DNA from: Promethearchaeia archaeon
GTDB taxonomy: Archaea; Asgardarchaeota; Lokiarchaeia; Sigyniarchaeales; SOKP01
Length of the DNA stretch: 64,000 nt
Direction: 5' to 3'
Assembly (NCBI GenBank): GCA_049671145.1
Contig: JBATUM010000185.1
Coordinates: 1,828 to 65,827, forward strand
In this document: in pieces, positions 36,101-56,803 of the stretch
Numbering within the stretch: the stretch's first letter is position 1
How the letters are laid out: every line of letters begins with the position of its first letter
Position numbers and translations under genes: made by a program
Notes under the pieces: generated by a model
Databases searched by the model: none
What the model was told of the DNA's origin: nothing
The model's input: only the letters and a program-made list of their open reading frames with translations

Positions 36101-36973
36101 TCACTTTTACAATTAGGTTTAATATCAATTGACAATAATTGGAATTTAGAATTTAAAGCCCCAAAAGATATAGGAACTCTAATAGATATTATTAGAAATC
36201 TTAATATTCATGCCAATTTTGAAATTAATTTGGATGGTGCGAATAATATAGAGAATGTGGCAAATCTAATACTTTCAATATTATTATCAGGGCACTATAA
36301 AACGTATACAATTGTTGACGAGACAGGAAAAGTAATAAAACAGAAACAAAAATATACTCATCCCGGAAGAGATTTCTTAGGTAATTTATTCGAAAATTAT
36401 CAAGTAGGTATTAAAAATCCTCTTTATCACATCAATATCAATGATATTTTTACAAAACAATTTATTTACACTCGACATTTTGTTAATTTCTTTAGATTGT
36501 CTCAATTATATGATGAAAAATTATTCTTTCAATTACCACCAGGTACTCAATTCACTAAAGCAAAAACCATTGGAATTGTTGAATCTGTGGGTGGTGAACG
36601 AATAATCGATGAAATTAATAATATTCGAGTAAAAGATAATAGACGTGTATTTTGGCTCGAATTAGGAAACCAATTTAGTGGATTTGAACATATTCTGTAT
36701 GACAGGAACATATTCGGTACATTTGAATTGAATAAAGAGAAAAATCCTTATGGGCATATGAGAGACTTTGCAGAGTGGGGTGGTTTTTATACTAGAGAGG
36801 ATATAGCGACATTAATTTTGAATACAATTAAAACACAAGAATACACAAGTAGTATAAATGAAAATGGAATAGAAGAGTTAAGATTCGAAGTAATGACAAA
36901 TTTTGGAATTATTAAGGAATTTGTTATCATAGTTGCGAGTAATGGATATATAATTTCTGCTTATCCGCAATAA
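101..36973 (+). CDS. Giant (12,290 aa) membrane-anchored surface/adhesin-like protein with a C-terminal toxin-like domain
   Basis: A single 36,873-nt reading frame is open in AT-rich DNA, while all other frames carry only short ORFs. Order of parts: soluble N-terminus, Lys/Arg-rich stretch, hydrophobic cluster, long N/S/T/Y/D-rich region with Ig-like, LamG-like and DxDxDG motifs, second hydrophobic cluster. The C-terminal region recurs as orphan copies downstream. Confidence 0.9.
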   Translation: MFEKKESDIKKSEKQRKKDIDDGLHKYGNYLYSKVYGAPETLLTDHEGKIGFYKSQTMFCPKTECPYHRVSDLSLNIDYNLEEFESEIDYQELIGHKIKQEVQNITPIEKEPVKTLRGQFQEFLKTYKISNVTPDEYFGIAMFFNKYYRKSESPDSQKWVLKKLKYTSDLCSVEEVEDTKQKSKPLPHSNVKLIGKYERYLESQKRSIRRSRYNKKVMKRRTKNLKSYKPIQIQEPSLKKEIYNRNVTRQQLHNVNKNRPFKEKQIPDPIYDRKSKIYYDSSLTENYCLKKVLEQSHVHELTHNYTDESLLRKEIEFFYLKDFLGFFLRNPNLQKSFHFKDSDEIVHFAKLIKGYCYDSFISNIVEKYLKESPLYRLISNISLLSSQIEKQIIPAFEDIISKSKKIRQIINYAEWTNLFTLSRNIEHIQNQLIQHQVKQKHHALLIGLLQQVNALCKDDQVLTHLRDVCRFIKVQVTSITPYIYSSIKLKNRKRAQLLLTHTPVSDLVSFVKRMIAYDIIMQRLEMKESLSLNNKDDKPVETTFSKIKNIFRKEKTQNNMRKKRLISRIKLPKSKKLHIKLNIFNKFRKKRRITKKIRKIRKLKESDYRTKHPDESLYKRIRRRSKEKFGKVRKRSILNLAGKGLASFGVILLCIYLIISLDNSFFPFHIFMGFLIFQVLIYGILLFFSIDRYVLSKSRLWYLILSPFIGFTLLWLCVKLGFSLGATLVIPIFMVVSQLLTRNRPHISVEELVRRSTSKIRHSTLRLFYHTHKFGFLTFLLTIVLIIFLYFYFFVPHLNYIPPMLATLVIFIFTFKSKSALKRVIREVRRKRAKVEESEIKANKCLLVLQDSNKRKALIVLVFLVLFPVSFIVNSAKTVHCPPVEFAYISQEDRLSSSSLDFETLEYQPDTTYLEDISIKDMFIMKSEISPEFAQSAAMRIQLIPEDVPYIEGYHIRDHYDFRSGYVNGPLEDYALITKVELNRFDILPGQYQMHVYYTELTGFSFATSTPEEYEITLEKDAMQVLSNERFEDLPVEYYGAVWTVENVVDNCWTIHFDGTLTNSIHEPLANYELDLFIEDHDTWQKVTTVTTDLEGKFSYEYTIYGSIEMNMMIKISHEGNGLYKPLEYIEYAGLEINTELGRFFIDEDGDGKIDWGLSLEDLLNALLGMSYAPPSSLDFLSHFSESSGTNTYDAVHNYQGILKGDTQWTVGKEGYGLYFDGEGTVSEGSETIGTTIYNAYANVSYQYSDTGWNSPQTTSSVDRSGSVNWSNPNNAQSQDDSYTSSNLEISGGSGVSSWHAESDSEQSITSSSYVEKHTLDFTAPAQGDYLIIVSCEVASTSTSYSVGVRVQLDDTTTIMEALTEACDSNRNYEYKCESTAYLAEDLGSGSHSIDIDAKREGGTSYIRYARIIVLRLDDWLSTTGMYAYTSTEGSTTPASNQWVDLETLTFTPDQAGDYLVLGSVEVKDYHTGYSAAVRLDYDNGSEYLPVIQGEESGQSYITYEAKDTTDYHAFVFGGIINITASQKSIKLQSYMAHTGFYREVRRRRIIAIRLDAMSSDTQSTENASNTSTTSQWADKSSLQFTPSSQQDYFIIGGMVIKPDRTWKPSHGELTHTTGTGTGTISLANVDSKDHDNPADCFPLIGIAIKQLNAEQQVFKTRYGYAGSSGTTYGKGSFIIAVPLGGGGGGGSAESDNLRCTNFGFNIPTGATIEGIEVGMDRYATNITENSIRDDSIRLRKTSGPVGTDNATTDWWDTMDDDTYNTYGGSTNLWGTSWTPADINSINFGIDIAAENIGSTNTAYIDHVRVKIYYTKQDSGIIRPDGDVSAQWEASSDGNHYSLINEETLNTSDYIYTSSNTTGSVIDEFTMETLNIQSGTVTEITVKVYGNETSIDSTVNVYCGSWIGAKQLNMESGQTWYTYTWSGLNLSQSDLDGLKIKFESVQPPSEGSTTYDYVDFGDILDSALGTTNNEFVITGWVYPTVLTSNQSDNGIKNCFFSKEGILEIGINESGYLQLYINTSSIEATAIYGFQNAISTNKWIYIAIRYNNGNIDVLIGDTWCTSALGSTAEPWSGGGNLQSGGKFTIGAETTSYSCFTGKIDEVSVFNTSLTNAEIEEHSFQITATVAKEDGQGGWTLITTNGEVIEGYLNFQCAVAGREADTVEYYLSNEVPDMESPDTNDWYFLTSYSYDSSSYNFVYNSWDLPDNDSWYFIIKATDVYNDTVYTYYETYFGIDHFDELINFTYLDKDGRINQNSQIGVIPYEGCEGYISQLNLYVNYSNDIDYLTTVNYSDLYSNYWLFNLDSLSDWISQKGLTPDNYDINFLIEANLSYSVGEAFYLYNYTLETITLDIEPPELELLTSGNYSFDLEDTYDIIEDNVLTMATNSSDAYFDRVILEYKYTTPSTAGWIEYGEYLADNTSLADVSFDIINLRDDNITIRFIGYDDLDNSKILYSSDYWFIKNFNNHEEFVVEGLEATALYGLDDTDKIDLELKILPVDNDITEVIVRTNYEEFKLDNIISEQEHIYFTDDGSSDPDIKLNSVFYNVFGAKFTFIPVKVILYQGTDIVNSKEVVITVISAVFNDTVQMSNLEINVSSTTDNIYMSFVNETNAYNNSHSIPFVVRNQYPVVNVYNSLNELVESIPLYANNDSWGSKVYDTETIEISSNKFNVSLPTPPSGEVCSIDEVLLNGSAYPFSYFISMNTGQVYITLLSGNDLDGIYNSSNPISIIYGVSTSPHPTEQFVGSFDFSNLHQDNYTFIGKFYDISGEVSTYSISQPTIIDFDGPEIYQQFMQETAVNPETGTISFVIEDFSGVSHYYFNTTIEGYWDIAGDIYTFYFNDTSISEGTTHIILSCNDTLGYESQQTFVLFLDKTTPSFDGVESSTDVWNGLFEIYANISDNSGYTVDIELLHISSNTISSSFEHTYIEIAPDQWQILLDSTRLQSGYYNISIIATDAAENIQTYVIDNVYFDNTISVIEELKEEVFIDSESMYNNTIHDELYFSDEKYITFTAFDEMFDNFNWSSIDQAVYEQLGVKNVTFYYTSQLAWYPLQIYGTLDYETFVYKITGYDDPLNTNVQNIKSIQKLRIANITVDKFTVLLDGTSISIRIDEQYRYLLSSEYSDQIEAQFYEFVDDNVLLAFDQVSEKWKLKSTGENYFNISQYLTLNEGDEFLFWFEIEDGLGNLIHSHKYHGVYDNSMTKDGSDSFFKWSLGTNSTGAGIVLFGSDTYADSTIQLNSSSIENTIFDESDVQRIYIYGSSDQSTWEFIGRAYYSGEESIWNYYWDGDIMEQLPPDHYNLRVYLFDRAGNYLSETHVIRTFDYTQIALITDLIFGEIFDYNSTANSNEQELKGIIENYLSGSSTSLWDVIAEYYNPNTKEWIPLATDPATIVANGNSANYTITWDINQDTAFMDTMYNLTYNYLPLQIASPTQQSLWGSWGTFGIASEWQPIIISEVSSNLDISVYKFNSTTGWELDTSLSSEATISSIEGQVFKLFDINKDGVYEIIRVSSSKIDVIYLDGSSDWTIKEDVTGLSGYEYSAFDIEYDGTSSNSVMVITQKDSSQLLSLWYYRFDSEFNLTKVESVECPINFEPYAIKIENYFSGSDRKAILVGGLISNSYISQVFEYDFNLNLKYVIADEIIGKVSVIEYDQINGIDSIILGVERLAIGKMDAVITLKRTTGTEEWVEFELSGFDDLKFQIIDLITIQENNMKHLIISSKTGLFQTRIITLQDKTSITSPICFISETYAKGELSPTNYPVVTPNNLPIYNIQKASYKTSGSNQWQTLNPEKYRYSRNEIRLDLQSIWSSLTYIKIAYSFESFVAEARSSVDPSFQSYSGTSDTQSVSASGMFFNDFSLPFAWLNPTSNYYAPNAHWNTLPNSLTYQYTPVISGLGNKVVYPTIKSDWAENWGSEYLNMPELENSLIYYGDGYDTGQLTQYLNSKDPDLADTMYLNNYVDGMYISNPYISENYNFSDMYYSDIHNINNQNGLYNYYDGSQKVIARNSLEDCQVYGSSNSKVFEEETFPTKGEDHYLHSVTYIYGSPSSGSIANTKRDDSNYFEMKSQFFHDPYGDDYQEFNVDLNIDGGYGGDDYYVSVRVTAPISVRLIINGVYAQGTSIDVNLDYIGDITQIKLTAGRPASQGQFKVKLYYFKVAKSLSADSPLYQNPSAQEAEYVLANRSQYLATDTSDFAVFGLGFTYKLPVIDRDGIEGIHIMFDAAISAVTADKHYPLSIQLWNYEQNRWESINVSKLDSSDTYDDNYLDKDFWAWDPGASSYKDDKFRSSWLTQDDTSINTICFGDCVPHSIDASGYIDFDSSVENGGNLFNTSKTGYSRNNEYISHYRVLFNNTAYANKLQANSLVIDPNNFFTSTSTFPAYTDSSLFYSANFYTDFLNDLHEFKVRIVTEKESGQGTNINAYLCIGDCNTYVHTDSSYLNYDEFESNALDGRHISDDLEFTDQGMKLYGYSGFNLKGVPEVQKFRDAFNSYQWQFEGTDDSTIYFTKDILQGTVVRSLHPSTNYDTNNFTSYRRQDAVIDYPFYKSALKGNYKAGSLLSIETNNGIYLSYTSEKDTYHEAEVKIYNYFDQMSGNAAKTYTIYYDIESEGTVDFMSLYNEDETIAQWDGGELSGMDRVEDPSTYNLYVYARSNSNFTLNIDQLVVETTPEEWETFMELDTLEEYLTFGSNDKFNLTVSRDSYLYIPTPSPIAKLYSTYLFDEDTITWNNKPADRGLITQNTLPQSSTSEIFDLGTIHPTKQYIKVDISATGGFNFWSPIVNYQFAKSYQEGGMLYMQTNTTEFLTLKSPVYAKNTTMTLNDHIVVECKTTSSNQINLALLSGDVVVKNYTLIPQNNTDFTSQFIALDTNSTIKFDQIIISGQLDEAEYFIANSITVFEGESIVDVKLSAYDFTIKKNQWPNVLPEGAKDQELSDPIYGQEKDGLYYNLSSGTFIDYQQLIVEFEFPLSAEEITNAHKVQVRLNGYAQGASLDDAIFKYFNFDNGNEEEISYVKNNGEYRFSIPKSDFATLKYDNDNYYVNFKMILTNTSMGPDDEFTLHIDSIDAIVFKDWSVDHDLYRVSYVFKRLGDSQTGGNVTLAVNDDILLTIDDNDLYTSGYENVVNFYYDTQTQEWSAFINEDPEDKTNATDTELSLKLRVESHYNNVNHGILLKSVDHHFYKKIENSLNFEEYKSILYSYENRLGNAESVIIGNSSDLITPENLFTQVCADIDVIYSFHDEMVPDNILSYSLNPTLESTYQDTLAAFNYTETGFIPKSSTSSEIEVYNDEKIAVENTTSHTQNGLPYRCSGFFDDQYLSNNTLRFTIKNSIQTPLFGRSNETLYANLKLTDVDLEFNVIISPTYTGFPLENTNVEGNDETVYNPSVLCNYSAYSQSRFRNSAIDDVQIPLISPIELDFSSINLDDFGTANLELALGLDIFRNNILYNRSWSLRFRLLYYNYSSDSWVDFQGMLRVKNNGVDKAVWNPDSTDNFIDYLQDPNANNFIPIYNENNIVIKNPITINNINTDTIQGGIMKLMFISYILPGNFSGDGNNNYFFYERADPDVPIEISQSLTIQECIMIGESKQIMYPEPSLKATLGLDENFRANLSLIENLGDIIAIRGLYEDGDGILYQYPIDYYWTTSGNELAFNSPMKYLFTNVSIEYVPQASLSYNATDGLWYLPNLITINGKNYTQPFFVSNLYVNDTLYGTYVHPSVDVGYVLGFDDKNVYANFSTPIHPDSNVYGAIYFGKVDSKYLYQIKLKDELLYKYNVLNDEDDLIGGIIKLGLNVGFTNVIYSELSQVSCSDYLLDITLYSLSENNDEELEREKIGTIHIDLDKNWVGYHYYDLEINLDQCEFVNESKGIKRLAEALTRGSAADLYIEVESVITNCFVNGPLFKGLYAQDIISAEFEIESDTSEIQYNGAEVDNAYIEIPQKSIMLTKIGTNIYKFGNLKYNFGFVVDELRAEGSVVLAENTHYEFDAGSRTITLIGDDYKGYSGLLSADITYYAFKWNAGQVSTLDPITLTFTQDYVQNITKFMEFIIQYDTIPGIDIEKIDFISGRIVLSDEEKSSALLNIYLYNFVEDKWELTPFVPYDDYSGSLIYSYVADRNFVVFEDYFNQTGSDTFEIKAIFTVEQESGECFASKIGFGITSIGAKLYYNTPSVQHKLNPAVEFDIDITDYITDPNIYLEELTVDLMYEAEIEFDAAFIYSQYALLEENFNFYIRNNYLEFDEFELNHNSITLSREEVYCFLYHDIVNEKYYLRAKLEYDWNCILEINLGSSSKLEIISELTLLKYDLTVDYTYYETTRISANEITVPHEIVPIYAPNYIETQSGINNLADDEELDLGIFGGFLRNVDTRQRLMIRQKLLYNFTESQQDWTQIILDHEYTDSTLRFVVPYGYMEIPETYIINSTYFGFIADHEVVHVELYYKDGQTDTKVANMTQNEEEPTLFKYTWNDVKGDTGASTNDTIEVMFNVTDILGNNAKYRYNLTADFDPPTPTIELGDGVQDFESANTATPLTEIDFICGEQSSCTEEYRIVDLVSGFVSSWNEINHSEISILHDLGDLSANFSIEYRVIDIAGNENITSIYNGNYQYIQFSKEKSITLNDDTIDLNSYTNREISFADGNEFNHSSQLDVFINGFRYGTAYLDSGYYKLSFGNENSEKTLIGYSESLISNNIFSNINPLDHVSWEVREDEYFAVVKHVLLNDNIEIYNYLSFNTTAQFELDHLYDRGFSLHDFMYLNRVYYYNETDGNVYTLISELDYSITENGFVEFPENSTIYDLYQNSDVQDGVVYFNYCYSPYQEQLLLTNADGFFVNVSIPDVYYHHTTIQKLVVSFNDIDGNTFTKIYYDLDLRKYFMEDVKAQYENYMFKLGKMMSIPLYIDFSDIALSNPGKNFALHLLESISFRITDSEKWPGSYIQNFSDYTVMNLPYQRFAITDLKLYNLISDTIDADEQGYVTANITFTAPEYYGFYAEEEFKIKRLDIVFTDVKAYVYHEEILDGSTVAIEYSDQIILNYRWNNTFSPVIMDDVVNLPITLENASNGDILGFSVANWITKLDMDSESGYYTRYYYSQFLAPSLLGEFNISFGSLGTPIFNMTFISPPIFILNITQETLSATEPIYLADDMYELKYGETLLLDGCIADNDEYLIEDEVYEYKYEEAVDGKTTHALKILSPFGDDEFIDKEEFSIYFINDKLNVKCLYSTLNGLHFVNTSYLDGKREPTISYVDNSFILNINWYKKSDHFIEYDTLLLISYKVLKGKPISPTSFSSLDSYGNDMQQNLIEIPFAKYDILSRSWITEDDFEKQLFVDKQLLYKDVESTQATIQGPQYDEGSLIQTGIIDIHAVYVNKSYSDKFCHVAPTEYTWSINANGELVVEDLNYSSGDVFKVIYYAVEPVALSHSVANPQYQISHITVTNDTGYSYEFVEGNDYKVSEDGYTLYFLDLYNEFLKNNVFTIYDYFNITYHAPLSRKVDLSQNVLLMLQDTEGNDIPIDNIPIDSLGFFQYKKQLKVDSDLSLPLGGGKQLVHLTLKYLPLSVYNKSADQSITIDYEDQNVGKFYPYVESNAWAKPFTVITIPHRVKLKMVEDPTQDMVITQEFYEEREYKFNYNPVEALENGEEYTKIMIDALAKEEYQFTFRLSDFDDKPIENSVVWLHIGLMPKSKTGFLNERAVIDEYNIHPYFESLGTEEFTSRGPGIGTNKMFGRPLTYELNYYNTNYSAYGPYVWLYGITNAHGEVIFDVSFDNDFIEDFTDIFGLMEGFSSVEDIVLYIRAFSTDFDWDEFTIDSPDQYLCSKDGDVYNGITEEHYSYICSINNTISYNLALQDSTYVEGLIHLYKNHIALGVHDHVSYDLPDAKVRSRYDPLKLHLDVTEADPIPTTEMYTLQSLTKLHASSELEPSGNPILSDDYTYYAYVNFITPSGSVAESTYRAILDGGNNGYITFDNQTIKDILIDLGPGISTIQIQVAESEYYQASPVVMVPLEIKPANWTKFGEKNLEIDLIDPFINAYGNAFDNDNYIPFESNYPHLIGTLWIDPDYLGTGDNRSAKERSALDCMELNLIFNPDNTDPIPLRKGVMLSPGNQDGIMLFDIGFGPEDSFLMDISGVLNFSFSIEDTKYGIYEDNRTFEAYLLDLRLEENPSCSTPTTLWSVYENGFDTSGVDHLSVKVIDPSIISTETGSLSLGGFENGVNYGFEIEFEYDPEVEEYAIDAQSELLSLFCLESITSLEIINETGQEVTGWSQYYPSPSNLREQSAIKFGSSTPKNYTKFIIIYKFEFEFGTNNYVNMIFGPSNNMNKTSILFYFEDGFLPPSEDSKSFMFIRYNQTIAGTGASSYKLDYSIYGATSGDEDKFIIYNEQELEEELNKEVSLSINGVDHHAYIEFNETIGSGTSFNVIYGVSSQYMLGYGFQKEDKSYSDSVRLMYNNNSAASIIDSSSNTVGTVVLDDPSLYISLDNSPNETVLEFYNVPMLYAPEIIMTFKLDPMNTKLINENYQNEENTLKIKFYYVAQGGYGSYYTDALEIPLNYTKIQSDLINDIYTLQYSKDLQGIYEAFGVGSLDIYISISQTGNNSNYIPYIILEQFDYLCDEHLVEMYARMPLTKEGEMDVEAIINTPHYFQVFSQPFIDCEWGESPFDLMNGSEITVALEDLIHSSLVSLDVEDGNYGFTYLGTMETLPINSENYYMIPNLGVFTDAYSVDEVTYNEGFLNLFYGAGAQVSGEYEYYNRHYMVHESSPVDDYYSVIGSGVPTSWEDMFNITNQFLTTQEIDVSGTVLYHQLFDLTTDTIDMGDLEDVLGNITNAYFALQLPDEVSIAHIRAIGTPYEYDLSVQGFPVGDYVDGTYCKVKTSGTTQAFDTRIIDLDLLNASTDFDLKFATNGSKYIVFYKPTSFVQNLAENDMIMVDFWAYYTFAEGFDYEIEEDPINPYVSIIDWDYNIESLQSYTMHPDFANGSSFSIEFSALDWNSINNQYIYDGEDEFTFHPSISTNITVPYYGDATEDFSLLNIVPEEQWNDTEIFYYVYVYIWDGENESSTELYELREAFYNGYITQDENCSFYFTLNFTAMEDYIKIMEGNNYEIISDTYAFVQVSFISDQLKYPLSHTPFNYDYVGTEHTSYHIKLTISNNDPIYSYQTSEFSKYVLKIEDNYIHFQNRNYSEEGYIANKTNIKIEYKFKLQPGLLEQKHVLMTIYPWSNTFDSIFDGLTAADGSMMSYREKYRKLSGGSIISPFEYSLSINETYSLLLSYRLNQREYFEEHFEIDHRTGENEFYYMQEGLDLYVSELVEDGIPAVYVYYHDEEGRLNFLDRESYLVDTNIHKLTILSDSNPIITYIKDFYVSFLVTPHDFISTGYKFTYNPSIKNITETLTLTSWNVLNGESFDVYPNFDAYYYLNEDTLTPTFCESFATQIGAVLEEEERLVLNFTDALDSQMLTDIRDGKYLSLYINTAFSNYESLDHITIELNDTSGIMSEFTQVYTRSDLEYWDFKIKVRLPSTANTLQNMTIIPEFRSDDEYSPNNSLGVPRFDMIEWDSQALVEDINGQYMLHNLEYPLYTDESSLDLAYLFTDKLEYLGLPTGIAFNWSIEKDALGKDISILHIPSIYVDPITSVNCTFEDGDTIFLRYNSPVEKEIGIGIESMYFHKEPYGYDSLSTLAECMLINASSSESFVEFIAPYSYNFSLSLTPFDTEYMGSYKNIEIEFNVSSLAQFADGDGYVDFSDLVFSVPNPAYELTIQEVALIEHSLAPSEYVDEFYSRIWQYTELEEFTSSADPESDQYHLLLEEGPIFYYDADEGKWLEHLKIYDENYNYYSACVQGDADAKNYQLLYDSTSGNFTWNNNFDKTQEYWGMEIELPSIIDANTSFYFEYCTNSSWVHPITLYYTHIDFDSVDIIYNYEYLLTPRFEEWYGEIVENSNYDYELVQYYGETFTVYTDESVYSHIFNVEYSFTKDFVNMSLYKIVGMYANYTELMIEDDDVNFDITFDVEDKNVTITDLNSGDGLLNVFDSITIFLNYSFGPISMLTEVYLSDEFNQTYLTDMEETFYDYVSCSFSYHANSPNYLFAEPYQYIISGSSSFSPINFSRNEDLTTGYHLESYDTTTLYTKFEIFEDPFNVIYEADIDSNGEVDYKQEVDVDKDGKVDITRYGVEDPEYAGQIIWYRVIQEFESTERTIELFENPEKRTEWFDLDESHVGTLLDAEYREGVLEMFGIDSLEGFPLWNPTYWNMWCQRSTKQSSSKEQVVTTKFYSIRSDENRDGYAETQVNYLKTIATTYTNLTTIEETYVAGQTTCITSHKLDYSKMSAIFSIVTVEHLESGEFPDKFKKFTGIIEQLKESFTKYVRTTCVYYKDTQISEQIKYIEFEEGEIKETRVYSDNFVDEFSAFDCESTIQTLTITINDTEQAQEVVSPAAFIAEISTLNWTTPTWGIDDVPLKFDSLTTISSEGDIVAENYYERTIIISVPSIYSLYHEYLSDERAGMLPVATSNTLFSVKGVFITPPDGQVFYSSDKLDYLSGRLVEDGDGSGGFSVKAKTEGHYLYYDSDGNGYYETIFILYPDHVGDGIYTVMSVGFNYDGRQVFDPYEVLDYEILQGNVKSETEQSAKVVGAVCHRTLLAQIDEVYPNDFDGVIAKDHIFEIIKLVRRGDINKYWPELYYEVYHDQYARSWELYSQGFQDDLWDQTRNQLIAGIVGGSLGIFNVALGGLAYAFIYWGYSMMESEEKKQLAENHMRSATFYSIETERKDPIKVSQKHPADGPEDMWENINGHPSAFYTEVSGGEPGNLYTGQAVIIPPRSFSTWSESMYHVNPHDYPDLAIGYLNLDYFFLSSELSAYNDRPHYSFYFDNLGNMDDLSEVFSALSELGARPTDPSSFFAKALLYHQYRHNTLAYLEDHVEVISDKEFNAIRPICINGRPRYEFINANDELNQLTLPRSPLYQPIVVDQERYDALVEEFGVPIGVISVEVASDLLEEDYTLGISSSDMNLAERESYNAKIPLTATKFDYPITKVTIEGFSPTYGPYGLLVVDEEPLFEVELDTYDYKLIGGNLYFLQSINTIAAQKDPDFNNKISTIQSMDREFYYRVNIFFNTIVPYDSSRVYDDEFTQSSRPAQVLYEYVDTEADDLGKLALAQLISLSIGNYLEVFTLATATAEYHTEQRYTTDITLQSTLITSLALAPMTIANLYGSFSSSVLAELSEEAGEEITKLTTQQALICLAKASAVVLASIPTSVLKEVYEELYIDTWIEHTTDRIVTALGGDEGAASWWSTFICSFREAFLGWFSDVNIGSGADSQVTTETTQTTGTPTYADMGLNAAWDLIQNTEQALQNIEVAIQQGRKVASKGILSSLVDTDSILALLLSIPGLIVGGFGLGALSLLGSASMDMIHAQIQKNVARKWVSAYESIQENMQQSLDGLIEQEIARPKIKTLDLEVFNYPTVGYTPEIGRQLTQNYLTPAQIIDQTNTLIADTEKTLAEIESRYEIQKENIEQQLEVLKEMVNSESVSNENPFEIFVAEAAVKADPVYEVNGMRIWIQPLPAEHYNLDHDMTLNEFLALIDILNDPSKQAVFNGFILQHGTEILTAQGIIRLDGNMPLSQALDLIGYDRNNLEDQFNRLAPCIQIIDTTTLLQLQDDISNLFNPDAREAIFYRNSISDYQRSYFYYKFLKVYQIQQSEIKNTFNKPIYEVIYSRLVNSLPTDIEFTLEAWKQEVDDKAKQEGKITDEFRYIVDLCLKEVILLNLIELSGANEIDINEIFNSLDNYLENNLDALIEKLSDPKNFALLLAEVKNKIIDNLAQDDLSVFLALTHRYFDSINPNPSQLNLLDEQFQNILILKDLSTIAEDNNVRNEINFLSDFIYRLLNIYSETAILEGLNDLPVPGDKREGNDFINKFLNMQGPNSEIQYSINHLRNMFTALGLNNDLLKEMLLDQKSFFRVLRQKIQQASQNQDLDQEVRNIFNNIETNLGDLDFNGNDGFTSDEEMLLKILDEELNNLFGYVGYSLLQLGLISIDNNWNLEFKAPKDIGTLIDIIRNLNIHANFEINLDGANNIENVANLILSILLSGHYKTYTIVDETGKVIKQKQKYTHPGRDFLGNLFENYQVGIKNPLYHININDIFTKQFIYTRHFVNFFRLSQLYDEKLFFQLPPGTQFTKAKTIGIVESVGGERIIDEINNIRVKDNRRVFWLELGNQFSGFEHILYDRNIFGTFELNKEKNPYGHMRDFAEWGGFYTREDIATLILNTIKTQEYTSSINENGIEELRFEVMTNFGIIKEFVIIVASNGYIISAYPQ
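2030..2725 (+). other. Cluster of about 6-7 predicted transmembrane helices (N-terminal anchor of the giant protein)
   Basis: Hydrophobic runs include LASFGVILLCIYLIISL, FHIFMGFLIFQVLIYGILLFFSI, LWYLILSPFIGFTLLWLCV, LGATLVIPIFMVVSQLL, FGFLTFLLTIVLIIFLYFYFFV, MLATLVIFIFTF and ALIVLVFLVLFPVSFIV. A K/R-rich stretch (about 1780-2010) precedes them. Confidence 0.7.
4051..5150 (+). repeat. Three tandem protein repeats of about 120-130 aa inside the giant ORF
   Basis: The units start HTLDFTAPAQGDYLIIVSCEV, ETLTFTPDQAGDYLVLGSVEV and SSLQFTPSSQQDYFIIGGMVI. They end RIIVLRLDDW, RIIAIRLDAM and SFIIAVPLGGGGGGG. Confidence 0.7.
5969..6465 (+). other. LamG / concanavalin-A-like lectin domain (main part)
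   Basis: The sequence ...NEFVITGWVYP...WIYIAIRYNNGNIDVLIGD...GGKFTIGAE...FTGKIDEVSVFNTSLTNAEIEEH matches the Laminin_G_3-type pattern (hydrophobic core strands, then F-x-G-x-I-D-E-V-x-h-h-N-x-x-L). Confidence 0.6.
10480..11300 (+). other. Possible FG-GAP/VCBS-like beta-propeller region
   Basis: Blades of about 50-60 aa recur, with motifs such as FDINKDGVYEIIRV, FDIEYDGTSSNSVMVIT, KAILVGG and DSIILGV. Judged by eye only. Confidence 0.3.
14160..14420 (+). other. Possible DNRLRE/CBM-like module
   Basis: DKFNLTVSRDSYLYI...LFDEDTITWNNKPA resembles the TWNNxP signature of DNRLRE-type carbohydrate-binding modules. Confidence 0.3.
30470..30539 (+). other. Two adjacent DxDxDG-type calcium-binding loops
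   Basis: DIDSNGEVD and DVDKDGKVD lie 8 aa apart. Similar loops occur at about 3540 (DEDGDGKID), 10600 (DINKDGVYE) and 31735 (DSDGNGYYE). Confidence 0.5.
32520..34290 (+). other. Conserved pre-toxin module shared with the orphan ORF at 41867
   Basis: The two copies are collinear. Giant gene: LNLDYFFLSSELSAYNDRPHYS, FNAIRPICINGRPRYEF, LYQPIVVDQERY, YNAKIPLTATKFDYPITKV. Orphan: LNLDYFLMTSELPAYNFRPGYS, FDTIRPVCKDGRPQYEF, LYQPIVLDQYRF, YKAKIPLFQHEFDYPVQNV. Both continue into matching hydrophobic segments. Confidence 0.8.
36482..36970 (+). other. C-terminal cassette CT1 (putative toxin domain plus junction)
   Basis: From VNFFR onward it is collinear with orphan CT2. CT1 reads VNFFRLSQ...AKTIG...RVFWLELGNQFSGFEHILYD...ASNGYIISAYPQ. 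CT2 reads VNFFRSSH...AKTIG...RVTWLELGNQFGGMEHILYD...SSNGYIINAHPW. Confidence 0.6.
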
Positions 36974-37033: not shown

Positions 37034-37504
37034 ATGGAAATAATAGTAAAAAAGGTAAGAACAGGAGCAGAATATGAAGGCAAAATTGCAAATTTTTGGA
37101 TTTTAGGGCAATTAAAAGATTCCTCATGTATATGGATCTTTGACAGTAAGGCATATGATTTAAGGAAACACATAAACAACAATGTTGAATGTTTAATTTT
37201 AGCTTTTTTAGTGAATCTTACTCAAAAAGATTATAAGCAAGATAACAAAGAATCAATAACTAATATAATTAGTGGAAATTTTATTAAATCTGCTCTAATA
37301 ACATCAGACTGGAAGTTGCCATGGAATTATAAAGAAAAGCACTTTGCGGCATTAAACACAAATAATGGTTTGGTTTTATTGGATTGGGCAGATCTTGAGA
37401 CAATACCTATTCGAGAAAACATCGAAATTAAATTTCAAGAGCTAGATGAATTAAAATTATATGTACAACGATTCGATTTGGTAGCTTGGCATCCAATTGA
37501 ATAA
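37034..37504 (+). CDS. Putative immunity protein 1 (AWHPIE family, 156 aa)
   Basis: It starts 60 nt after the giant ORF stop and is preceded by a TAGGAGCG Shine-Dalgarno-like sequence. No TM segment or signal peptide is visible. It is paralogous to 38503-38985 and to the remnant at 41297-41536, and its C-terminus reads VQRFDLVAWHPIE. Confidence 0.6.
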   Translation: MEIIVKKVRTGAEYEGKIANFWILGQLKDSSCIWIFDSKAYDLRKHINNNVECLILAFLVNLTQKDYKQDNKESITNIISGNFIKSALITSDWKLPWNYKEKHFAALNTNNGLVLLDWADLETIPIRENIEIKFQELDELKLYVQRFDLVAWHPIE

Positions 37505-37590
37505 TTTTTATTCTATTTTCTTTAATTCCTCTACTTATTAAATATAATTAAAAGATAATCTAAAAATAGTAAAAAATTGGAATAAAAAAT

Positions 37591-37941
37591 GTGGATCTAA
37601 TGGTAAGATTAAATCAAGAATTTGATGAGCCAATAAGTGAAAGTATGTCAGGATTTTTAGTAGATATAATTGACAAAATAGATGAAATTACTGAACAAAA
37701 CCCTGATCAAATAATAAATGATTATCTGGCAAAATATTATGAAAGAAGGAAGCCAGTAGAACATTCTTTTAGTGATGATTTAATTGAAATTGTCAAAAAT
37801 GATATTATACTCAATATAATAGAAGTGAATACAGAAAAATTTGAAAATGTTAGTCAACCTGTAATGAATAAATTAATTGTGTTTTTCAAAGATTTTTTTA
37901 TAGATGAATTCCATAAATACAAAAACATTGAAATAAGTTAA
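37591..37941 (+). CDS. Hypothetical acidic protein; possibly a decayed pre-toxin linker of the orphan cassette
   Basis: GTG start, 116 aa. Its end overlaps, in another frame, the point where CT2 homology begins (37937). KNDIILNIIEVNTEKF weakly resembles KNPLYHININDIFTKQF in the giant protein. Confidence 0.35.
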   Translation: MDLMVRLNQEFDEPISESMSGFLVDIIDKIDEITEQNPDQIINDYLAKYYERRKPVEHSFSDDLIEIVKNDIILNIIEVNTEKFENVSQPVMNKLIVFFKDFFIDEFHKYKNIEIS

Positions 37942-38494
37942 TTTCTTTAGATCATCTCATTCATGGAATTTAGAATTAATTTATGAATTAAGAGGAAATG
38001 GTGTAACTTTTGATATTGCAAAAACAATAGGTCTAGCAAGAGAAGGTCGAGAAATCATAGAATTACCTGATGGCTCCTTTGCAATTAGTGGAAGGGAAAG
38101 TAGGGTTACATGGCTAGAATTAGGAAATCAATTTGGTGGTATGGAACATATTCTGTATGATACATTTATATTTGGCTCTTACGCTCCACACCCTACGCAT
38201 TTAGGCCATCTTGGGGATTTTGCAAAGTATGGTTATGATACAAAAGAAGAAATTGCTGAATTAATATTAAAAACAATCCATGAAAATGATTATTATATGT
38301 ATCTTGGTAGACATACTTATAGAATTGAGACTAAATCAGGTGAAACTATATATATAGGAATTATTATATCATCAAATGGATATATAATTAATGCCCATCC
38401 TTGGGATCGGGATCAGGATGATATTGATAATTTAAATAAAATCTTTCAGGAGATTGATGATTATTTCAATTTTAAATTATTTAATAATTGGTGA
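37937..38494 (+). pseudogene. Orphan CT2 cassette (start-less copy of the giant protein's C-terminal about 185 aa)
   Basis: The frame opens right after a stop at 37934-37936 and translates to VNFFRSSHSWNLELIYELRGNGVTFDIAKTIGLAREGREIIELPDGSFAISGRESRVTWLELGNQFGGMEHILYD..., collinear with giant residues VNFFRLSQ...EHILYD. The first ATG is internal, at 38141. Confidence 0.75.
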
Positions 38495-38502
38495 ATATTT
38501 TT

Positions 38503-38985
38503 ATGAAAGTTTTCTTAGAAAAAGTAAATATTGGGACTGAATCAGAGGGAGTAATATATGAATTCCTAATTCATGGTCGATTAAATAGTAATCAAATTAT
38601 ATATATTCATGATGACGCTGCGAAATTTGATCTTCGAAATTTTGAGAATCAGGTAGTTGAAATTCTTTTAGTAGCACATAATATTTCCCTTAAAACCACT
38701 TCAAGGAGACCTGATACTCAATTAATAGATAGGGAACTTAGAGTTATTAAAGGCAACTATCTTGGAAGATATGTTCTCCCTAATGAATGGCATGATTCGA
38801 AATATTTTCATAATGAGAGATCCTATAAGTATTGGCATCATCTTGATCTTCATGCGATTAAAGCGGAAAATGGAATATTTATAATTACGAATGAGAATGC
38901 TGAAAAGTTACCCATTGAAAAAGGAGAAAAAAGCTATTTCTATGTTGATAGTTTTTATATGATTGCATGGCATCCAATTGAATAA
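38503..38985 (+). CDS. Putative immunity protein 2 (AWHPIE family)
   Basis: An ATG at 38503 lies 8 nt after the CT2 stop (the track's TTG at 38488 is less likely). The N-terminus MKVFLEKVNIGTESEG parallels MEIIVKKVRTGAEYEG, and the C-terminus reads VDSFYMIAWHPIE. Confidence 0.6.
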   Translation: MKVFLEKVNIGTESEGVIYEFLIHGRLNSNQIIYIHDDAAKFDLRNFENQVVEILLVAHNISLKTTSRRPDTQLIDRELRVIKGNYLGRYVLPNEWHDSKYFHNERSYKYWHHLDLHAIKAENGIFIITNENAEKLPIEKGEKSYFYVDSFYMIAWHPIE

Positions 38986-39024
38986 TTTTGACTCTATTTT
39001 TTATTTAAAATTCCTCTACTTTTT

Positions 39025-39078
39025 AAATAATTTCTATAGACATTTTCTCCCTCCCCCATGGTGCCCCTGTTGAAAAAG
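39025..39078 (+). repeat. GC-rich direct repeat, copy A
   Basis: AAATAATTTCTA...CTCCCTCCCCCATGGTGCCCCTGTTGAAAAAG. Its partner at 46563-46628 shares the AAATA(A/G)TTTCTA, CTCCCTCCCC, TGGTGCCCC and TGAAAAAG blocks. Confidence 0.6.
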
Positions 39079-39328
39079 AAGATTAAAGATTTTCTTCACA
39101 TCTAAAGATGAAAACATACGAAATAATAATCATTTTGAAGACACTATCTGTTGAAAAGACCAATTTCTCCCTAATATGATCCCACTTCGTGTGGGATGAA
39201 AACTTTCTATTCGTGAGGAAAGTTGTTGTCTCCACTATGTGCGTTAATATCTTCCACCCAAATTCTAATAATCATTCTAAATTTTACATATCAAAATATT
39301 TAAATACTCTATTTTATCTAATATAGTA

Positions 39329-39353
39329 AAGAGATATATTTTTTATATCTCTT
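39329..39353 (+). promoter_or_regulatory. Perfect 10-bp inverted repeat immediately upstream of the ORF at 39359
   Basis: AAGAGATATA-TTTTT-TATATCTCTT ends 5 nt before the ATG at 39359. It could be an operator or a 5' hairpin. Confidence 0.3.
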
Positions 39354-39358
39354 CAAAA

Positions 39359-39634
39359 ATGAAAGAAAATTTTAATTGTCAACGGAAAAATAATGTAAAT
39401 CAAGGCGTATTGCATAATTACAGATTAATTTTAGAAGGGATTATACGCTTTGAACATGAGAAATCTATTCTTTTTGAACTTAGAAAGAATAAAGAATCCT
39501 ATATTTCTTTTAAGATTAAAAAAATAGTAGCAGATATTAAATCAATCACCTTTAATGAGTGGCAGATCAAGAAAGAAAACTTCTATAACAAATTAAAAAT
39601 CAATGAAATAGGGAGAGTGCCATGGAGATCTTAA
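39359..39634 (+). CDS. Hypothetical small protein (91 aa), translationally coupled to the helicase-like gene
   Basis: The ORF overlaps the next start by 13 nt. No recognisable motif. Confidence 0.4.
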   Translation: MKENFNCQRKNNVNQGVLHNYRLILEGIIRFEHEKSILFELRKNKESYISFKIKKIVADIKSITFNEWQIKKENFYNKLKINEIGRVPWRS

Positions 39635-41094
39635 AAGTTAATTCAGAAGAATTAGTTAGATATCCTGTTAAAAATTTCATTGGAAAGGGAACTTTTAATA
39701 ATAAAAGTTCTGGAACGGGTAAAACTTGGAAGAGTTATGAAATTATAGACTATGGAATAGAACATCAAATGCTCATGATGATTTGCTTACCGACTCATGA
39801 TAATATAAAGGAATTTATAAAGAGAATGAATAACCATAGGGATAATGCAATTCAGTTAAAGGGTAAAATGAAATATTGCAAGTTAAGAAATAAAGTCAAT
39901 GCTTACTTGATCGGATGTACAACATGTAAACATCAAAGAAAATGTCGATATATAAAGCAATTTTCAATAGCAAAAGATAAACAGATTATATTCATAGTTC
40001 CACATCATCTACATTTGGTTCGTGAATTTAATCCAGACATTCTTATAATCGATGAAAGTATAGAAAAACAAGCTCATAAAGGAATAAAAATTCCAGAAAG
40101 GGTAAATCCGAATAATTATTTAGTACAAGCGAATTGTAATACCTGTCCATTTAGTAATAAGTGTTCAGATCAGCGTAAGAGGTTTAAAAGAAACCACGGT
40201 TGTTATTTTACGTTATACAAAACCCTTAATTTGGATGATTTTGAACCAGAATCTTTAGAAGAATATTTTTTCAAATATAATTATGAAAATTTAGACAATA
40301 TATTTGCTGTTGAAGATAATAGTAGAAATCACGTTATTATCGGAGATACACCTCTAGATTTCTTAAATCAAGTCAATACTCTTATTTTCAATTGTGCTAC
40401 AACAAGAATTTCAATTGCAGAGAAAATATTTCAACGGAAGTTCGATATTGTAATATTAGATGAAGAAAAATTAGAGAATAGGATATTTTTACTAGATGAT
40501 CTAATGACAAAGAAGAAAACTAAAGTAGAATTAACTAATGCTGAGAAATATTTTGAAGTACTGAATATCCCATTAGGAGATAAGACGTTGATCTATACTA
40601 AAAAAGAATTTGAAGAATATTTTAAAAAGAAATTTCCTAAAGTAAAAACAGGTCATTATGGTGATAGCAGGGGTTATAACAAGTTTGAAGAATGTGAAAA
40701 TGTTATTATATTTGGAAGATACGGACTAACACCAGCAGTTCAAATGTTATTGGAATTAAGAGGGTATAAATCAAGAGAAATACACTGGTTTGAAAAAGCA
40801 GAGGAACTTCAAGCTATGCATAGAATTCGACCGATAAGAGATAAAAATAAAATGATTTATTTATTATCAAATTCTCTTAAAGAAGTTGTTGAACCAACAG
40901 ATTACATTAATTTGAATAGTTTAAAAATTGGTTTCGAAATCCTTAACGGAGATTATGAAGGTATGACGAAAACTGAGATATATGAAAAAGTTAAGGGAAA
41001 CATAAAAGATAAAATAAGAGCTATCGATACATTACAAAACACAGGCAAAATAGGAGATATGACAGGGAGGGGCAAGAAATTACAGAAGATATAA
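39622..41094 (+). CDS. P-loop NTPase, divergent XPD/DinG-like SF2 helicase with Cys clusters
   Basis: Walker A is SSGTGKTW and the Walker B/DExx-like motif is ILIIDESIE. A CATT motif-III-like element and QAMHRIRPIR (motif VI-like) are present. The cluster C-x12-C-x2-C-x5-C (CKLRN...CTTCKHQRKC) sits between motifs Ia and II, as in XPD Fe-S helicases. A second cluster reads CNTCPFSNKC. Confidence 0.45.
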   Translation: MEILKVNSEELVRYPVKNFIGKGTFNNKSSGTGKTWKSYEIIDYGIEHQMLMMICLPTHDNIKEFIKRMNNHRDNAIQLKGKMKYCKLRNKVNAYLIGCTTCKHQRKCRYIKQFSIAKDKQIIFIVPHHLHLVREFNPDILIIDESIEKQAHKGIKIPERVNPNNYLVQANCNTCPFSNKCSDQRKRFKRNHGCYFTLYKTLNLDDFEPESLEEYFFKYNYENLDNIFAVEDNSRNHVIIGDTPLDFLNQVNTLIFNCATTRISIAEKIFQRKFDIVILDEEKLENRIFLLDDLMTKKKTKVELTNAEKYFEVLNIPLGDKTLIYTKKEFEEYFKKKFPKVKTGHYGDSRGYNKFEECENVIIFGRYGLTPAVQMLLELRGYKSREIHWFEKAEELQAMHRIRPIRDKNKMIYLLSNSLKEVVEPTDYINLNSLKIGFEILNGDYEGMTKTEIYEKVKGNIKDKIRAIDTLQNTGKIGDMTGRGKKLQKI

Positions 41095-41250
41095 TCGAGC
41101 TTTCGTAATTACTGCTATTTTCCAAATCCTCTTCTTTATTATATATAGGGGGAAAAATAACAGATGTCCAAGCCCTTTTTTCTTTTTTTGTTCAAAATAT
41201 TAACAAAAAACTATTAAACTCTTTTTTAAAAGCAGTTTTCATCAAAAAAG

Positions 41251-41294
41251 TATCATCAATTCACAGACCAACATATCATCAATTCACAGACCAA
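41251..41294 (+). repeat. Tandem duplication (two 21-nt copies, 23-nt period)
   Basis: TATCATCAATTCACAGACCAA occurs at 41251-41271 and again at 41274-41294. The duplication lies exactly at the 5' break of the immunity-gene remnant. Confidence 0.85.
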
Positions 41295-41296
41295 AT

Positions 41297-41536
41297 GTAA
41301 TTCAAGGTATTTACATAAATAATTATGAAATACCAATAAAATGGAAAGACTACGATAAATTTTATTCAGAAAGATCTATTGCAATAAAAACTAATGAGGG
41401 TTTTTTTTTATTAGACGCATCTGATGTTAAAAAAATGTCAATTCGGGGAAAAAAAGAAATTAAATTAAAGGAAGGTCAAAAAATTACTCTTTATGTTGGG
41501 AGGTTTGATCTACATGCTTGGTATCCACTAGAATAA
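41297..41536 (+). pseudogene. 5'-truncated remnant of a third AWHPIE-family immunity gene
   Basis: It translates to VIQGIYINNYEIPIKWKDYDKFYSERSIAIKTNEGFFLLDASDVKKMSIRGKKEIKLKEGQKITLYVGRFDLHAWYPLE*. This is collinear with the C-terminal halves of the two intact paralogs. No in-frame start lies upstream. Confidence 0.7.
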
Positions 41537-41866: not shown

Positions 41867-44800
41867 TTGCTATGGGACAATTTATTGAGCATGGGAGCCT
41901 CTGATCCTGACGTATTTGTTGCTCTTGATTTTGATGACCTAAACTTAGATTATTTCTTAATGACTAGTGAGCTACCTGCTTATAATTTTAGACCGGGATA
42001 TTCATACCCAAATACCAATAATCTCGATAACGTATATCATACATATGCGGTTAATACATTAGGTTACGTGGAATATCTAGTACAACACTCCTCAAATAAT
42101 CAATTTGACACAATTCGCCCAGTATGTAAAGATGGAAGACCTCAATATGAATTTGTGGAGCGCGATAGCTACGATAAAGTGCTCCCGCAATCAGTTCTTT
42201 ACCAACCAATCGTATTAGATCAATATCGATTTAGCCAGCTCAGACCTCAGCTTGGTCATCTTATCGTAAATGTACAGTGTAGACCTCATGATTATAATAA
42301 TTCTATTGGTATTAACCCTTATGTGATGAATGCAGTCGAGGCAGATGTATATAAAGCCAAAATTCCACTCTTTCAGCATGAGTTTGATTATCCCGTGCAG
42401 AATGTTTACATCGATATTGTAAAAAGTAATCCTGAATATGAAAACGGAATACTCTCAAATTTGAATTTGAAATATCTTGCCCAAGACATTTATGTAAATG
42501 AATCATATTATGCATTTGAGCAAGGACAGCTCTACTTCACTGCCCCAATTGAGACCTTAATTACTCAAAAATATCCCCATTATAGGACCGCACTAAAGGA
42601 TATATGGCGGATAGAAGGTATGAATTCCAAGGTATACTATCGCCTCCATGTCTATTTTGATGTTTTTGTTCCTGATCTTACAGAAGAGACTCATAGATTA
42701 GCACTAGCCCAAGCATCTTCCTATGCAATTATGGATTATTTCAATCAATACACTTACGCTGAAGTCACAGCGAATATGATTTCTGAAATTGCTTATACTG
42801 AGACAGTAACCTTCTGGTCCACTATTATTAGCGCTCCTATGATGATGTTTGGTTCATACCTCGTAGAGGGTTTAGAAGAGGGGATAGCACGAGCAGGAGT
42901 GCAAATGGCGTTGACCACGCTTACCGCTCCGATAAAGGAAGTATTCCAAGAAATTATTATGGATGGATTTATAGAGGCATTCGCCGAGAATTTTGCGGAT
43001 ATAATGGGCTGGTCTGACGATGTTGGATATTGGCTCTCTGCTTTAGCAACCTCAGGTCGAGAAACTTTGTTGGGTCCCTTAGGAAAATTAACTTGGGGAA
43101 AGATTCGAGAAATGACTAAGTTGGACCTTGAGATAAAAAACACCGTTAAATTAATGCAGCAGGCAACTCAATCTCAAGATACCGATACTGCCAATAAACT
43201 TCGTCAGACATTAGAAGATCTATACCGACAACAAAGTGAAGCTAGACAACAGAAAGAACAGGAGAAAAAGACATGGAAAAAATTACTTGCCTCTGACTTT
43301 TTCAAGGGAGTTCTAATGACTATTCCATCTGCCTTTATTGGTGGATTTAACATATTTTCTTTCATGGGAATGCAAAATATGCTCTCAGGTACGTTGAGCC
43401 ATATTAATATAAAGACATTTTCTAAGATACGAGCGGTACAACAAGCGTCCAGAAGAGGAAAATTACAGCACATTCTTGATGAATACGGAATTGAGGGTGA
43501 TGTCCTTTCCAGAAATATCGAAAGCAACTTGAAACAGCCTACCGATATTGATGGAGAAGCGCTACATAATTTATTTAAAGAACAGAATGAAGAAGACCTT
43601 CCGGGAGTAAAGAATACTATAGTGTTTAACCCCAATCCTAAGGCTGCTAAAACTGTGGAAAAAATTAATATACCGAATAAGTTTGAGGAGATCCGATTAG
43701 CAAATTGGGTTGATGAATTAACAAAAGATTATAAATTTGAGGATAAGAAGAAAATCTCTGACCAAGTAAGTAAGACGACAAATAATGTTGAAGAGACTGA
43801 ACTTAAGTCTGACATCATGATCGGGGATCTATATGAAGGCTTATTTTACCAATTTAATAAAATTCGAATAGGGAATCTCTATCATGAATTTTATGCCACT
43901 GGAACTTTGCAAACCGATGGTAAGAAAGTCTCGAAATTACTCTATTCTAAGCAATTGATAACCGATGCGATTATTATGCTCAGTTCCACTAAATATAAAG
44001 GAGTCCCAATTATCATAGACCAAGAAATCAACTTCATAGTTCTAGAAGCTATTATAGCTAAAATAAAAGAAGGACACACGATCACCCAGCTTGAGAGAAT
44101 AATAATGGACATTGGCATCTTTATTGAAGGAAGATACGATATTATTGGAAAGGTAAATTCAGCGTCTGATTTCAATGAAAAATTCTTTGAAAAAACGAAG
44201 CGGAATGTAAAGAAACTTGGAATTCTAAAAGTAATAGGGAGATCGATGTTTGGCAAATTAAAACCAGGTGCTAAAGTTGCTTATGAGATTAAGAACGAGG
44301 GAGAAGTGTATAATGTAGATGATATTATTGTATTTTATCGGGATGGAGTGAAAATTGTCCATCGGGTTGAATATATATTCGAATCCAATGGTGAAATCTT
44401 CTATGTAACCGAGGGTGTGAATTCCGATACTAATCCATATGTAGATAGTGATCTTGTTTCCAACGATCAAGTTATTGGAAGAGTCACTGAGATGTCTGAA
44501 CAAGATTTATCCGCTCTTATAGAAATGGCAGAACAAGGGAAGGTCCCCTCTATTGAGGGTTTAGGAATGTCGAATGCTTTAGAAAAAGTCTATCAATCAC
44601 TATACAAAACAAGCAAAAGCCTTAGAAATATGAGGGATAATCCTATAGGCTTAACTAGGGAACAACTATTAGATTTTGTCATAAATAAAATTTCTGAGAT
44701 AAATGTAGAAGCTTTTACAGATATAGATAAAGTAAAGGAAGCAAGAATAAGAATATTAACTACATGTTATGAAATGATTGAAAGGAATATCTATTCTTGG

Positions 44801-56772: not shown

Positions 56773-56803
56773 TTATAGGAGGGAGGGAATCTGAATTAGT
56801 GAA

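Follow-up and report, generated by a model that had tools for sequence, protein, structure and literature searches.

What are the small proteins for that are encoded directly behind the toxin-like end of a giant archaeal protein? The question arises from a stretch of 64,000 nucleotides of a Promethearchaeia archaeon (contig JBATUM010000185.1 of assembly GCA_049671145.1; hereafter the window), in which a single open reading frame (ORF) of 12,290 residues ends in a C-terminal (CT) domain and is followed by genes of a small-protein family called here AWHPIE. The most probable answer, to which we assign a probability of roughly 85%, is that the AWHPIE proteins are the cognate cytoplasmic immunity proteins of the CT toxins in a polymorphic-toxin locus, and would bind and neutralise them. 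An earlier note, made from the DNA sequence alone, had suspected immunity proteins co-evolving with their toxins, and its suspicion is strengthened by the homology of the CTs to the toxin in PDB entry 7M5F, a conserved gene order, the absence of AWHPIE genes behind other C-termini, the presence of orphan cassettes and the co-divergence of the two proteins. Coordinates without a locus number refer to the window, and the genes and repeats of the locus lie on the forward (+) strand.

AWHPIE genes in the window

The window contains exactly three AWHPIE copies, as judged by a six-frame scan with a hidden Markov model (HMM), and the three are homologous to one another. The first, imm1 (37034..37504), is intact and encodes 156 residues ending VQRFDLVAWHPIE. 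It starts 60 nucleotides past the stop codon of the giant ORF, and its product is the putative cognate immunity protein of CT1. The second, imm2 (38503..38985), is also intact, encodes 160 residues from its ATG (165 from a TTG at 38488) and ends VDSFYMIAWHPIE. It starts 8 nucleotides past the stop codon of CT2, of which its product is the putative cognate immunity protein. The third is a remnant, imm3 (41288..41536, start approximate), which retains the C-terminal half of the gene, about 82 residues matching HMM positions 69-156 (E 1e-31); the first 70 or so codons are gone. In the ORF listing it appears as a 33-residue ORF (41435..41536) ending VGRFDLHAWYPLE. The frame is open from 41204, and similarity to imm1 and imm2 runs in this same frame from about 41288. 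Because this homology extends upstream of 41435 and covers the C-terminal half only, the ATG at 41435 is regarded as incidental. The closest intact relative of the remnant is the family member P0007.

Pairwise alignment, which the earlier note had proposed, was made by BLASTP and was significant for all three pairs at E 2e-12 or better. imm1 and imm2 are 28% identical over their full length (E 5e-20), imm1 and the remnant are 40% identical over 90 residues (E 6e-18), and imm2 and the remnant align with E 2e-12. The description in that note of two intact paralogs and one truncated remnant holds, positions included, as does its remark that the proteins lack a transmembrane segment (maximum 19-residue Kyte-Doolittle means of 0.91 for imm1 and 0.61 for imm2). 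The AWHPIE proteins are small, soluble and mildly acidic, with a median isoelectric point (pI) of 5.3.

The AWHPIE family

When 1.84 billion representative proteins were searched exhaustively with a profile, at least 167 AWHPIE clusters at 50% identity emerged with E<=1e-3, 107 of them with E<=1e-10. A word-indexed protein search with imm1 returned 6 relatives only and, compared with the profile search, badly undercounted the family. Scanning the species genomes of GTDB with an alignment of the small proteins brought up no AWHPIE relatives. Most members have 135-165 residues and share an N-terminal motif (M-x-[IV]-x-I-K-x-V-x-x-G-A-x-Y...I-Y-D-F-W-I) and a C-terminal strand (G-R-F-D-L-x-A-W-x-P-I-E), with one subgroup ending GRFDL[VI]G instead. 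Members with named sources come from metagenome-assembled genomes (MAGs) of a Thorarchaeota archaeon, a Dehalobacterium and a member of the Bacteroidales, where they are labelled hypothetical proteins.

The family is uncatalogued in the databases searched and is not archaeon-specific. The earlier note recognised no named immunity family, and profile searches of Pfam and NCBIfam, with the Imm and SUKH-type families that it wished to see compared, likewise matched no catalogued family. imm1, imm2 and the imm3 remnant gave noise only against Pfam and NCBIfam at E<=1, and AWHPIE proteins had no PHROG match and no sequence match in the PDB. Compared with the catalogued immunity families (Pfam Imm1-74, SUKH/SMI1_KNR4, SuFu and Imm-LRR), the AWHPIE proteins are alike in genomic role and size class but differ in having no consistent Pfam match (no Pfam family was common to more than one of 120 members at E<=0.1) and no NCBIfam or PHROG match. 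No description of the AWHPIE family, or of Asgard polymorphic-toxin loci of this type, was found in the searchable literature library, which is incomplete.

An AlphaFold2 (AF2) model of imm1 built from nine sequences (pLDDT 81.8, pTM 0.79) is all-beta and folds into two barrel-like halves. Its best neighbours in the PDB are the tandem TOBE (di-Mop) domains of ModE and ModG, with a non-significant Foldseek E of 0.05, a TM-score of 0.45 and about 10% identity. The likeness, two small beta-barrels in tandem, is one of shape only, and no molybdate-binding context surrounds the AWHPIE genes. Some members carry further domains. In P0030, from Thorarchaeota, the AWHPIE domain is fused to a C-terminal leucine-rich repeat (LRR) domain, and in P0033 it is followed at the C-terminus by DUF4240, which scores 28.4 bits where the cutoff is 27. 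These LRR and DUF4240 fusions recall the multi-domain proteins among catalogued immunity families. P0033 belongs to a subgroup, with P0040, P0061, P0101 and P0114, in which the AWHPIE domain precedes a helical C-terminal domain of about 170 residues matching DUF4240 in Pfam; no literature on DUF4240 was found in the same incomplete library.

CT toxin domains

The window encodes three CT domains. CT1 (about 36641..36970) forms the last 110 or so residues of the giant ORF (101..36973), a single uninterrupted frame whose product is the presumed delivery protein; the CT HMM matches its residues 12167-12291. CT2 (37943..38494) is an orphan toxin cassette, with a frame open from 37943, a first start codon (ATG) at 38141 and a CT HMM match of E 6e-41. 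CT3 (about 45242..45655), a divergent toxin domain, lies at the C-terminal end of an ORF of 1,263 residues. CT2 is 43% identical to CT1, and CT3 is more distantly related to both.

A profile made from the CTs of the window and two relatives from other loci matched one solved structure, chain C ('Toxin CdiA') of PDB entry 7M5F, over 93 positions with E 2.4e-11 (hmmsearch). By BLASTP, the corresponding segment of 7M5F chain C is 34% identical to the CT at the end of another Asgard giant, that of locus L001 (E 8e-14). The depositors of 7M5F describe it as the complex of CdiA-CT and CdiI from Serratia marcescens BWH57 (PMC8616854), the toxin having a BECR RNase-like fold with a proposed active site of H47, E51, H52 and R89, and CdiI-BWH57 being a 98-residue alpha/beta protein with conserved K5, D9, Y10 and W16. 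The proposed catalytic histidine pair (H47 and H52 of 7M5F) is invariant in the archaeal CTs, which for the most part also retain the arginine and an SNGY motif; in A5 and A8, no variation is seen at H37 and H59. Sub-threshold matches to the Pfam family PBECR1 (E 1e-3 to 7e-3) come from the Serratia and the Asgard CT sequences alike. Scans of the CTs against Pfam, NCBIfam and PHROG gave no meaningful hit. An AF2 model of CT1 (pLDDT 73.6) has the order of three helices followed by four strands that is also given in the published description of 7M5F, with low confidence in the first third (residues 1-50), which is poorly predicted. Judged by their sequences, CT1, CT2 and CT3 are homologs of the CdiA-CT BWH57-type BECR toxin domain.

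Gene order and co-divergence

Outside the window, AWHPIE genes recur behind the same toxin type. In L001 (GCA_012974705.1) an AWHPIE gene lies directly after a 12,146-residue giant protein that ends in the same CT. The JGI contig L002 has one AWHPIE gene after a CT1-like remnant and a second, divergent one after a 302-residue orphan CT, and in L008 the gene follows a truncated CT. Each of the loci found with the CT profile, L019, L020/21 and L022, has an AWHPIE gene 20-40 nucleotides downstream. A metagenome scan for CTs yielded 42 loci with a GC content of 0.27-0.73, and in 20 of them an AWHPIE gene comes next on the same strand.

Bacteria show the same arrangement. In a Dehalobacterium sp. 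MAG of the Firmicutes (GCA_038562245.1; L023, 5345..6417) the Rhs-end motif DPDGH (..NNPVRYTDPDGH) is followed by a CT and an AWHPIE gene; CdiA_C and RHS/WapI cassettes belong to the same array. This CT carries an in-frame stop, which is found also in the independent assembly L024. Other bacterial carriers of the CT have PT-HINT, TSP3, PKD or PEGA modules, and one PT-HINT CT protein has an AWHPIE gene downstream. Homologs that are never linked to CT-domain genes would, by the earlier note, have spoken against immunity; the opposite is seen, with linkage in both Asgard archaea and bacteria.

The presence of an AWHPIE gene follows the toxin type and not the delivery protein. The same CT occurs on bacterial Rhs-end, PT-HINT and TSP3/PKD proteins, and homologous Asgard giants with other C-termini have no AWHPIE gene behind them in any of five informative loci (L013-15, L017 and L018). 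Relatives of similar size to the giant protein in other Promethearchaeota MAGs carry different C-terminal ends. AWHPIE genes also sit in orphan CT/immunity cassettes, namely CT2/imm2 in the window and the pairs in L002, L008, L019, L020 and L022.

The two proteins diverge together. Across 24 distinct HMM-aligned pairs, the pairwise identities of CTs and AWHPIE proteins correlate, with a Mantel Pearson coefficient of 0.81 (p 2e-4) and a Spearman coefficient of 0.36 (p 4e-4). An earlier comparison of 8 pairs by local alignment had been unconvincing, with a Spearman coefficient of about 0. The CT subtype with RLEH..QRHMYE goes with the AWHPIE subtype with ITSEDEFG.

Proposed function

The immunity reading is preferred because the toxin homology, the gene order in two domains of life and the covariation with CT type point the same way. 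We infer physical binding, neutralisation, RNase activity, toxin export or delivery, and recombination in vivo. The imm1 protein would bind CT1 and cover its His/His/Arg face, so that the toxin is blocked within the producer and its kin. The spare cassettes downstream (CT2/imm2, the imm3 remnant, and the 1,263-residue piece with CT3 and its LRR partner) would broaden immunity, and could replace the toxin tip by recombination through a conserved pre-toxin segment. Orphan AWHPIE copies would extend protection to the toxins of neighbours. Electrostatic pairing of an acidic immunity protein with a basic toxin was also considered and is not supported, both partners being acidic.

Several observations weigh against the immunity reading. 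About half of the CT homologs only are accompanied by AWHPIE. In 11 of the 42 metagenome loci the downstream gene encodes instead a family of 104-120 residues with the motif IKLMxDYxxxPxW; this family is unrelated to AWHPIE (hhalign E 0.33), and its start fits the conserved K5, D9, Y10 and W16 of CdiI-BWH57. A family of 161-165 residues occupies the position in three loci (hhalign against AWHPIE E 0.006, probability 6%) and a 123-residue ORF matching none of these families in one, while seven loci (six near-identical and one other) lack an obvious downstream ORF. In the window, the imm3 remnant is an exception: the earlier note had AWHPIE genes always 3' of a CT, which is correct for imm1 and imm2, but upstream of the remnant lie non-coding DNA and an unrelated ORF of 490 residues, and no CT. 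Conversely, the gene behind CT3 encodes an LRR protein and is not an AWHPIE gene. Some AWHPIE members have no adjoining CT (L004-7, and the tandem copies that neighbour Tpt1 and NB-ARC/TPR genes in L009-L012). The co-divergence is supportive and not decisive, as linkage without interaction could yield it. On the toxin side, the RNase activity of the 7M5F family is deduced from its fold in PMC8616854, and the archaeal CT domains, with a pI of about 4.8, are more acidic than is usual for an RNase. A Foldseek search with the AF2 model of CT1 gave no significant PDB match and did not recover 7M5F; because of this, the toxin assignment is made from sequence rather than fold.

Stand-alone copies are usual for orphan immunity genes, though not specific to them. 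In L004 to L007 (e.g. L004 2986..3463) four independent contigs show the same frameshift in the AWHPIE gene, which adjoins an HD-CE/HATPase gene with no toxin domain near; it appears to be a decaying orphan immunity gene. L010 (365..1555 and 6001..6980) also has AWHPIE genes without a CT, one after a Tpt1/KptA-like (PTS_2-RNA) gene and, downstream of an NB-ARC/TPR gene of STAND type, two in tandem, surroundings that suggest a conflict or defence island.

In the window, the immunity position after CT3 is filled by a 279-residue LRR protein (45729..46568; Pfam LRR_4, E 2.7e-38). The orphan of CT3 type in L069 is likewise followed by a similar LRR protein (605..934), and LRR genes come after giant C-termini in L015 (13678..14607), L017 (13872..14762) and L022 (3253..3993) as well. 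Since Imm-LRR is a published immunity class (PMC3482391), toxins of the CT3 subtype may be inhibited by an LRR protein. The LRR proteins in this position may be immunity proteins of LRR type, or else a conserved partner of the giants.

Three other explanations were weighed. The first, which we regard as improbable, is that the CT/AWHPIE pairs are intracellular toxin-antitoxin modules, for addiction or abortive infection, and that the giant protein is incidental. The BECR fold is common to the RelE, MqsR and BrnT toxins (PMC8616854), the orphan pair of L019 lies in an island of MazE/PIN, ParE and RHH/PIN modules, and the internal ATG of CT2 at 38141 could give a free-standing toxin of 117 residues with imm2 starting a few bases past its stop. 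However, the window and L001 both have the CT as the in-frame end of a protein exceeding 12,000 residues, its bacterial relatives are joined to surface or pre-toxin modules (Rhs-end, PT-HINT, PKD and TSP3), and the solved relative is an effector of contact-dependent inhibition (CDI). This explanation would change the role of the system only, the AWHPIE protein still being the neutralising partner.

The second, at slimmer odds, is that AWHPIE is an accessory of the toxin, such as a chaperone, a loading or export adaptor or an activating partner, and not an inhibitor. Tight linkage and co-divergence with the CT are equally expected of a specific chaperone or activator, and the double barrel of the imm1 model is OB/TOBE-like, a fold often used for ligand binding. 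Against it stand the orphans, tandem arrays and decayed remnants without a toxin, which are typical of immunity genes and for which a chaperone has no obvious use. Lying just downstream of the toxin tip and within spare CT cassettes, the genes occupy the immunity position, and in other loci that same position is taken by an immunity gene of CdiI-BWH57 type (PMC8616854). The third, that the AWHPIE ORFs are functionless chance or decaying frames, draws on the ease with which long ORFs arise in AT-rich DNA such as this region, with 25-30% GC, and on one copy being plainly a remnant, but is refuted for practical purposes by pairwise E values down to 5e-20, 167 related clusters across a GC content of 0.27-0.66, the confident model of imm1 and a gene order conserved in two domains of life.

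With the AWHPIE proteins taken as immunity proteins, a wider picture can be drawn, which we offer tentatively and at somewhat less than even odds. A new family of tandem beta-barrel immunity proteins may have travelled with its BECR toxin between bacteria and Asgard archaea and, in the archaeon, come to sit at the tip of a surface protein of 12,290 residues that is anchored in the membrane. The result would be a contact-dependent, CDI-like weapon, or a means of kin recognition, with exchangeable tips in the closest prokaryotic relatives of eukaryotes.

Comparison with known systems

The nearest known system is CdiA-CT/CdiI of S. marcescens BWH57. The toxin domains are homologous and share the histidine pair, the arginine and SNGY, and in both systems a small gene expected to block the toxin follows the toxin tip. 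The inhibitors differ: AWHPIE proteins, with 140-165 residues and an all-beta model, have no detectable similarity to the 98-residue alpha/beta CdiI. CdiI was absent from the PDB sequence matches of the AWHPIE profile, and 7M5F from the Foldseek PDB list for the imm1 model. Delivery also differs, being presumed to depend on a 12,290-residue archaeal protein and not on a CdiA filament exported by two-partner secretion.

Orphan cdiA-CT/cdiI and rhs-CT/rhsI modules are known from bacteria. The window resembles bacterial polymorphic toxin loci (Zhang et al. 2012, PMC3482391) in having a main toxin gene followed by spare, promoter-less CT/immunity pairs that share a short pre-toxin segment with it, together with immunity genes in decay and what looks like the C-terminal part of another allele, out of its place. 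It differs in its Asgard host and in the segment itself, which reads FFR(L/S)S..AKTIG and not VENN or PxxxxDPxGL. Polymorphic-toxin systems have been reported as rare in archaea, where most immunity superfamilies were described as scarce or absent (PMC3482391). An archaeal parallel is the hypervariable module of the Thermococcales, compared here by its description in PMC8416519, where a large surface-type protein with Ig domains is followed by variable genes and the module is interpreted as a conflict or self-recognition system. As far as that description goes, the protein families and the archaeal phylum are different.

The toxin/antidote arrangement is thus a well-known one, within which the AWHPIE family is new. 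More unusual is where it is found: a complete polymorphic-toxin locus on a protein of 12,290 residues in an Asgard archaeon. If the immunity reading is true, a sizeable uncatalogued family of at least 167 clusters from bacteria and archaea joins the toxin-immunity proteins. The 7M5F toxin family would gain a second, unrelated inhibitor, and the two together would be convenient for learning how one toxin can be blocked by different folds. A classical polymorphic-toxin locus, with main gene, orphan tips and immunity genes, would then be present in an Asgard archaeon, which bears on how it deals with the cells around it. Being small, the toxin/immunity pairs lend themselves to testing in E. coli.

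Cassettes and neighbouring genes

The DNA of the giant-ORF region has 25-39% GC. The predicted protein is rich in lysine at its N-terminus, followed by several hydrophobic segments, and a Pfam scan of its first 1,000 and last 400 residues gave no match in the first 1,000. Among GTDB species genomes, relatives of the giant protein were found on only six MAG contigs, all of Promethearchaeota archaeon. The window encodes no recognisable secretion system.

Aligned as DNA, the 3' end of the giant ORF and CT2 become homologous abruptly at AATTTCTTTAGAT (FFR..), the start of a pre-toxin segment FFR(L/S)S...AKTIG, and include a near-identical block over WLELGNQF.G.EHILYD. At the other end of the cassettes, a repeat search found a conserved block consisting of the 3' end of imm1 and its downstream flank (37457..37544), which recurs after imm2 (38938..39029). 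The two copies are 78% identical over 63 nucleotides, with 20 of 21 nucleotides matching for AATTCCTCTACTTATTAAATA, and about 45 nucleotides downstream of the genes are conserved in DNA. The block is either a cassette boundary or a T-rich terminator region. Between cassettes 1 and 2 lies an acidic ORF (37591..37941; 116 residues, pI 4.4) with no match in Pfam, NCBIfam or PHROG; in L001 and L008 the immunity gene is followed by a different, conserved ORF of 109 residues.

Cassette 2 and the imm3 remnant are separated by a 91-residue ORF and the 490-residue ORF whose start it overlaps (39359..41094). The larger product has a P-loop, with a Walker-A-like GTGKT, an IIDES motif and two cysteine clusters. 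It has 17 homologs, those with named sources being all Asgard (Promethearchaeia, Lokiarchaeota and Thorarchaeota) and one, from a Promethearchaeia MAG, being 100% identical. Searches of Pfam, PHROG, the PDB and phage proteins gave no match. It was considered as a toxin or delivery component and rejected, since it belongs to an Asgard-only family without a family, phage or PDB match. The region is possibly an inserted, perhaps mobile, element, and it is plausible that an insertion in the 2.3 kb before the remnant truncated imm3. Where the homology of imm3 begins, a perfect 21-nucleotide repeat TATCATCAATTCACAGACCAA occurs twice, 23 nucleotides apart (41251..41294); this duplication could be the scar of the event that removed the 5' half of the gene.

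Beyond the remnant, the 1,263-residue ORF that ends in CT3 (41867..45658) starts with TTG amid homology to the giant protein. By BLASTP it is 41% identical over 907 residues to the giant of L001, versus 29% to that of the window, and it has the look of a C-terminal fragment that was displaced from a different allele. Taken together, the pre-toxin homology, the conserved 3' block and this apparent fragment are features typical of toxin-tip cassettes that can be exchanged, such as those of bacterial CDI and Rhs loci. Further downstream (50893..61603) three large ORFs of 1,274, 648 and 1,599 residues stand in a row; the middle one has only a weak HerA/DUF87 match, and the last starts with long repeats rich in glutamate and aspartate.

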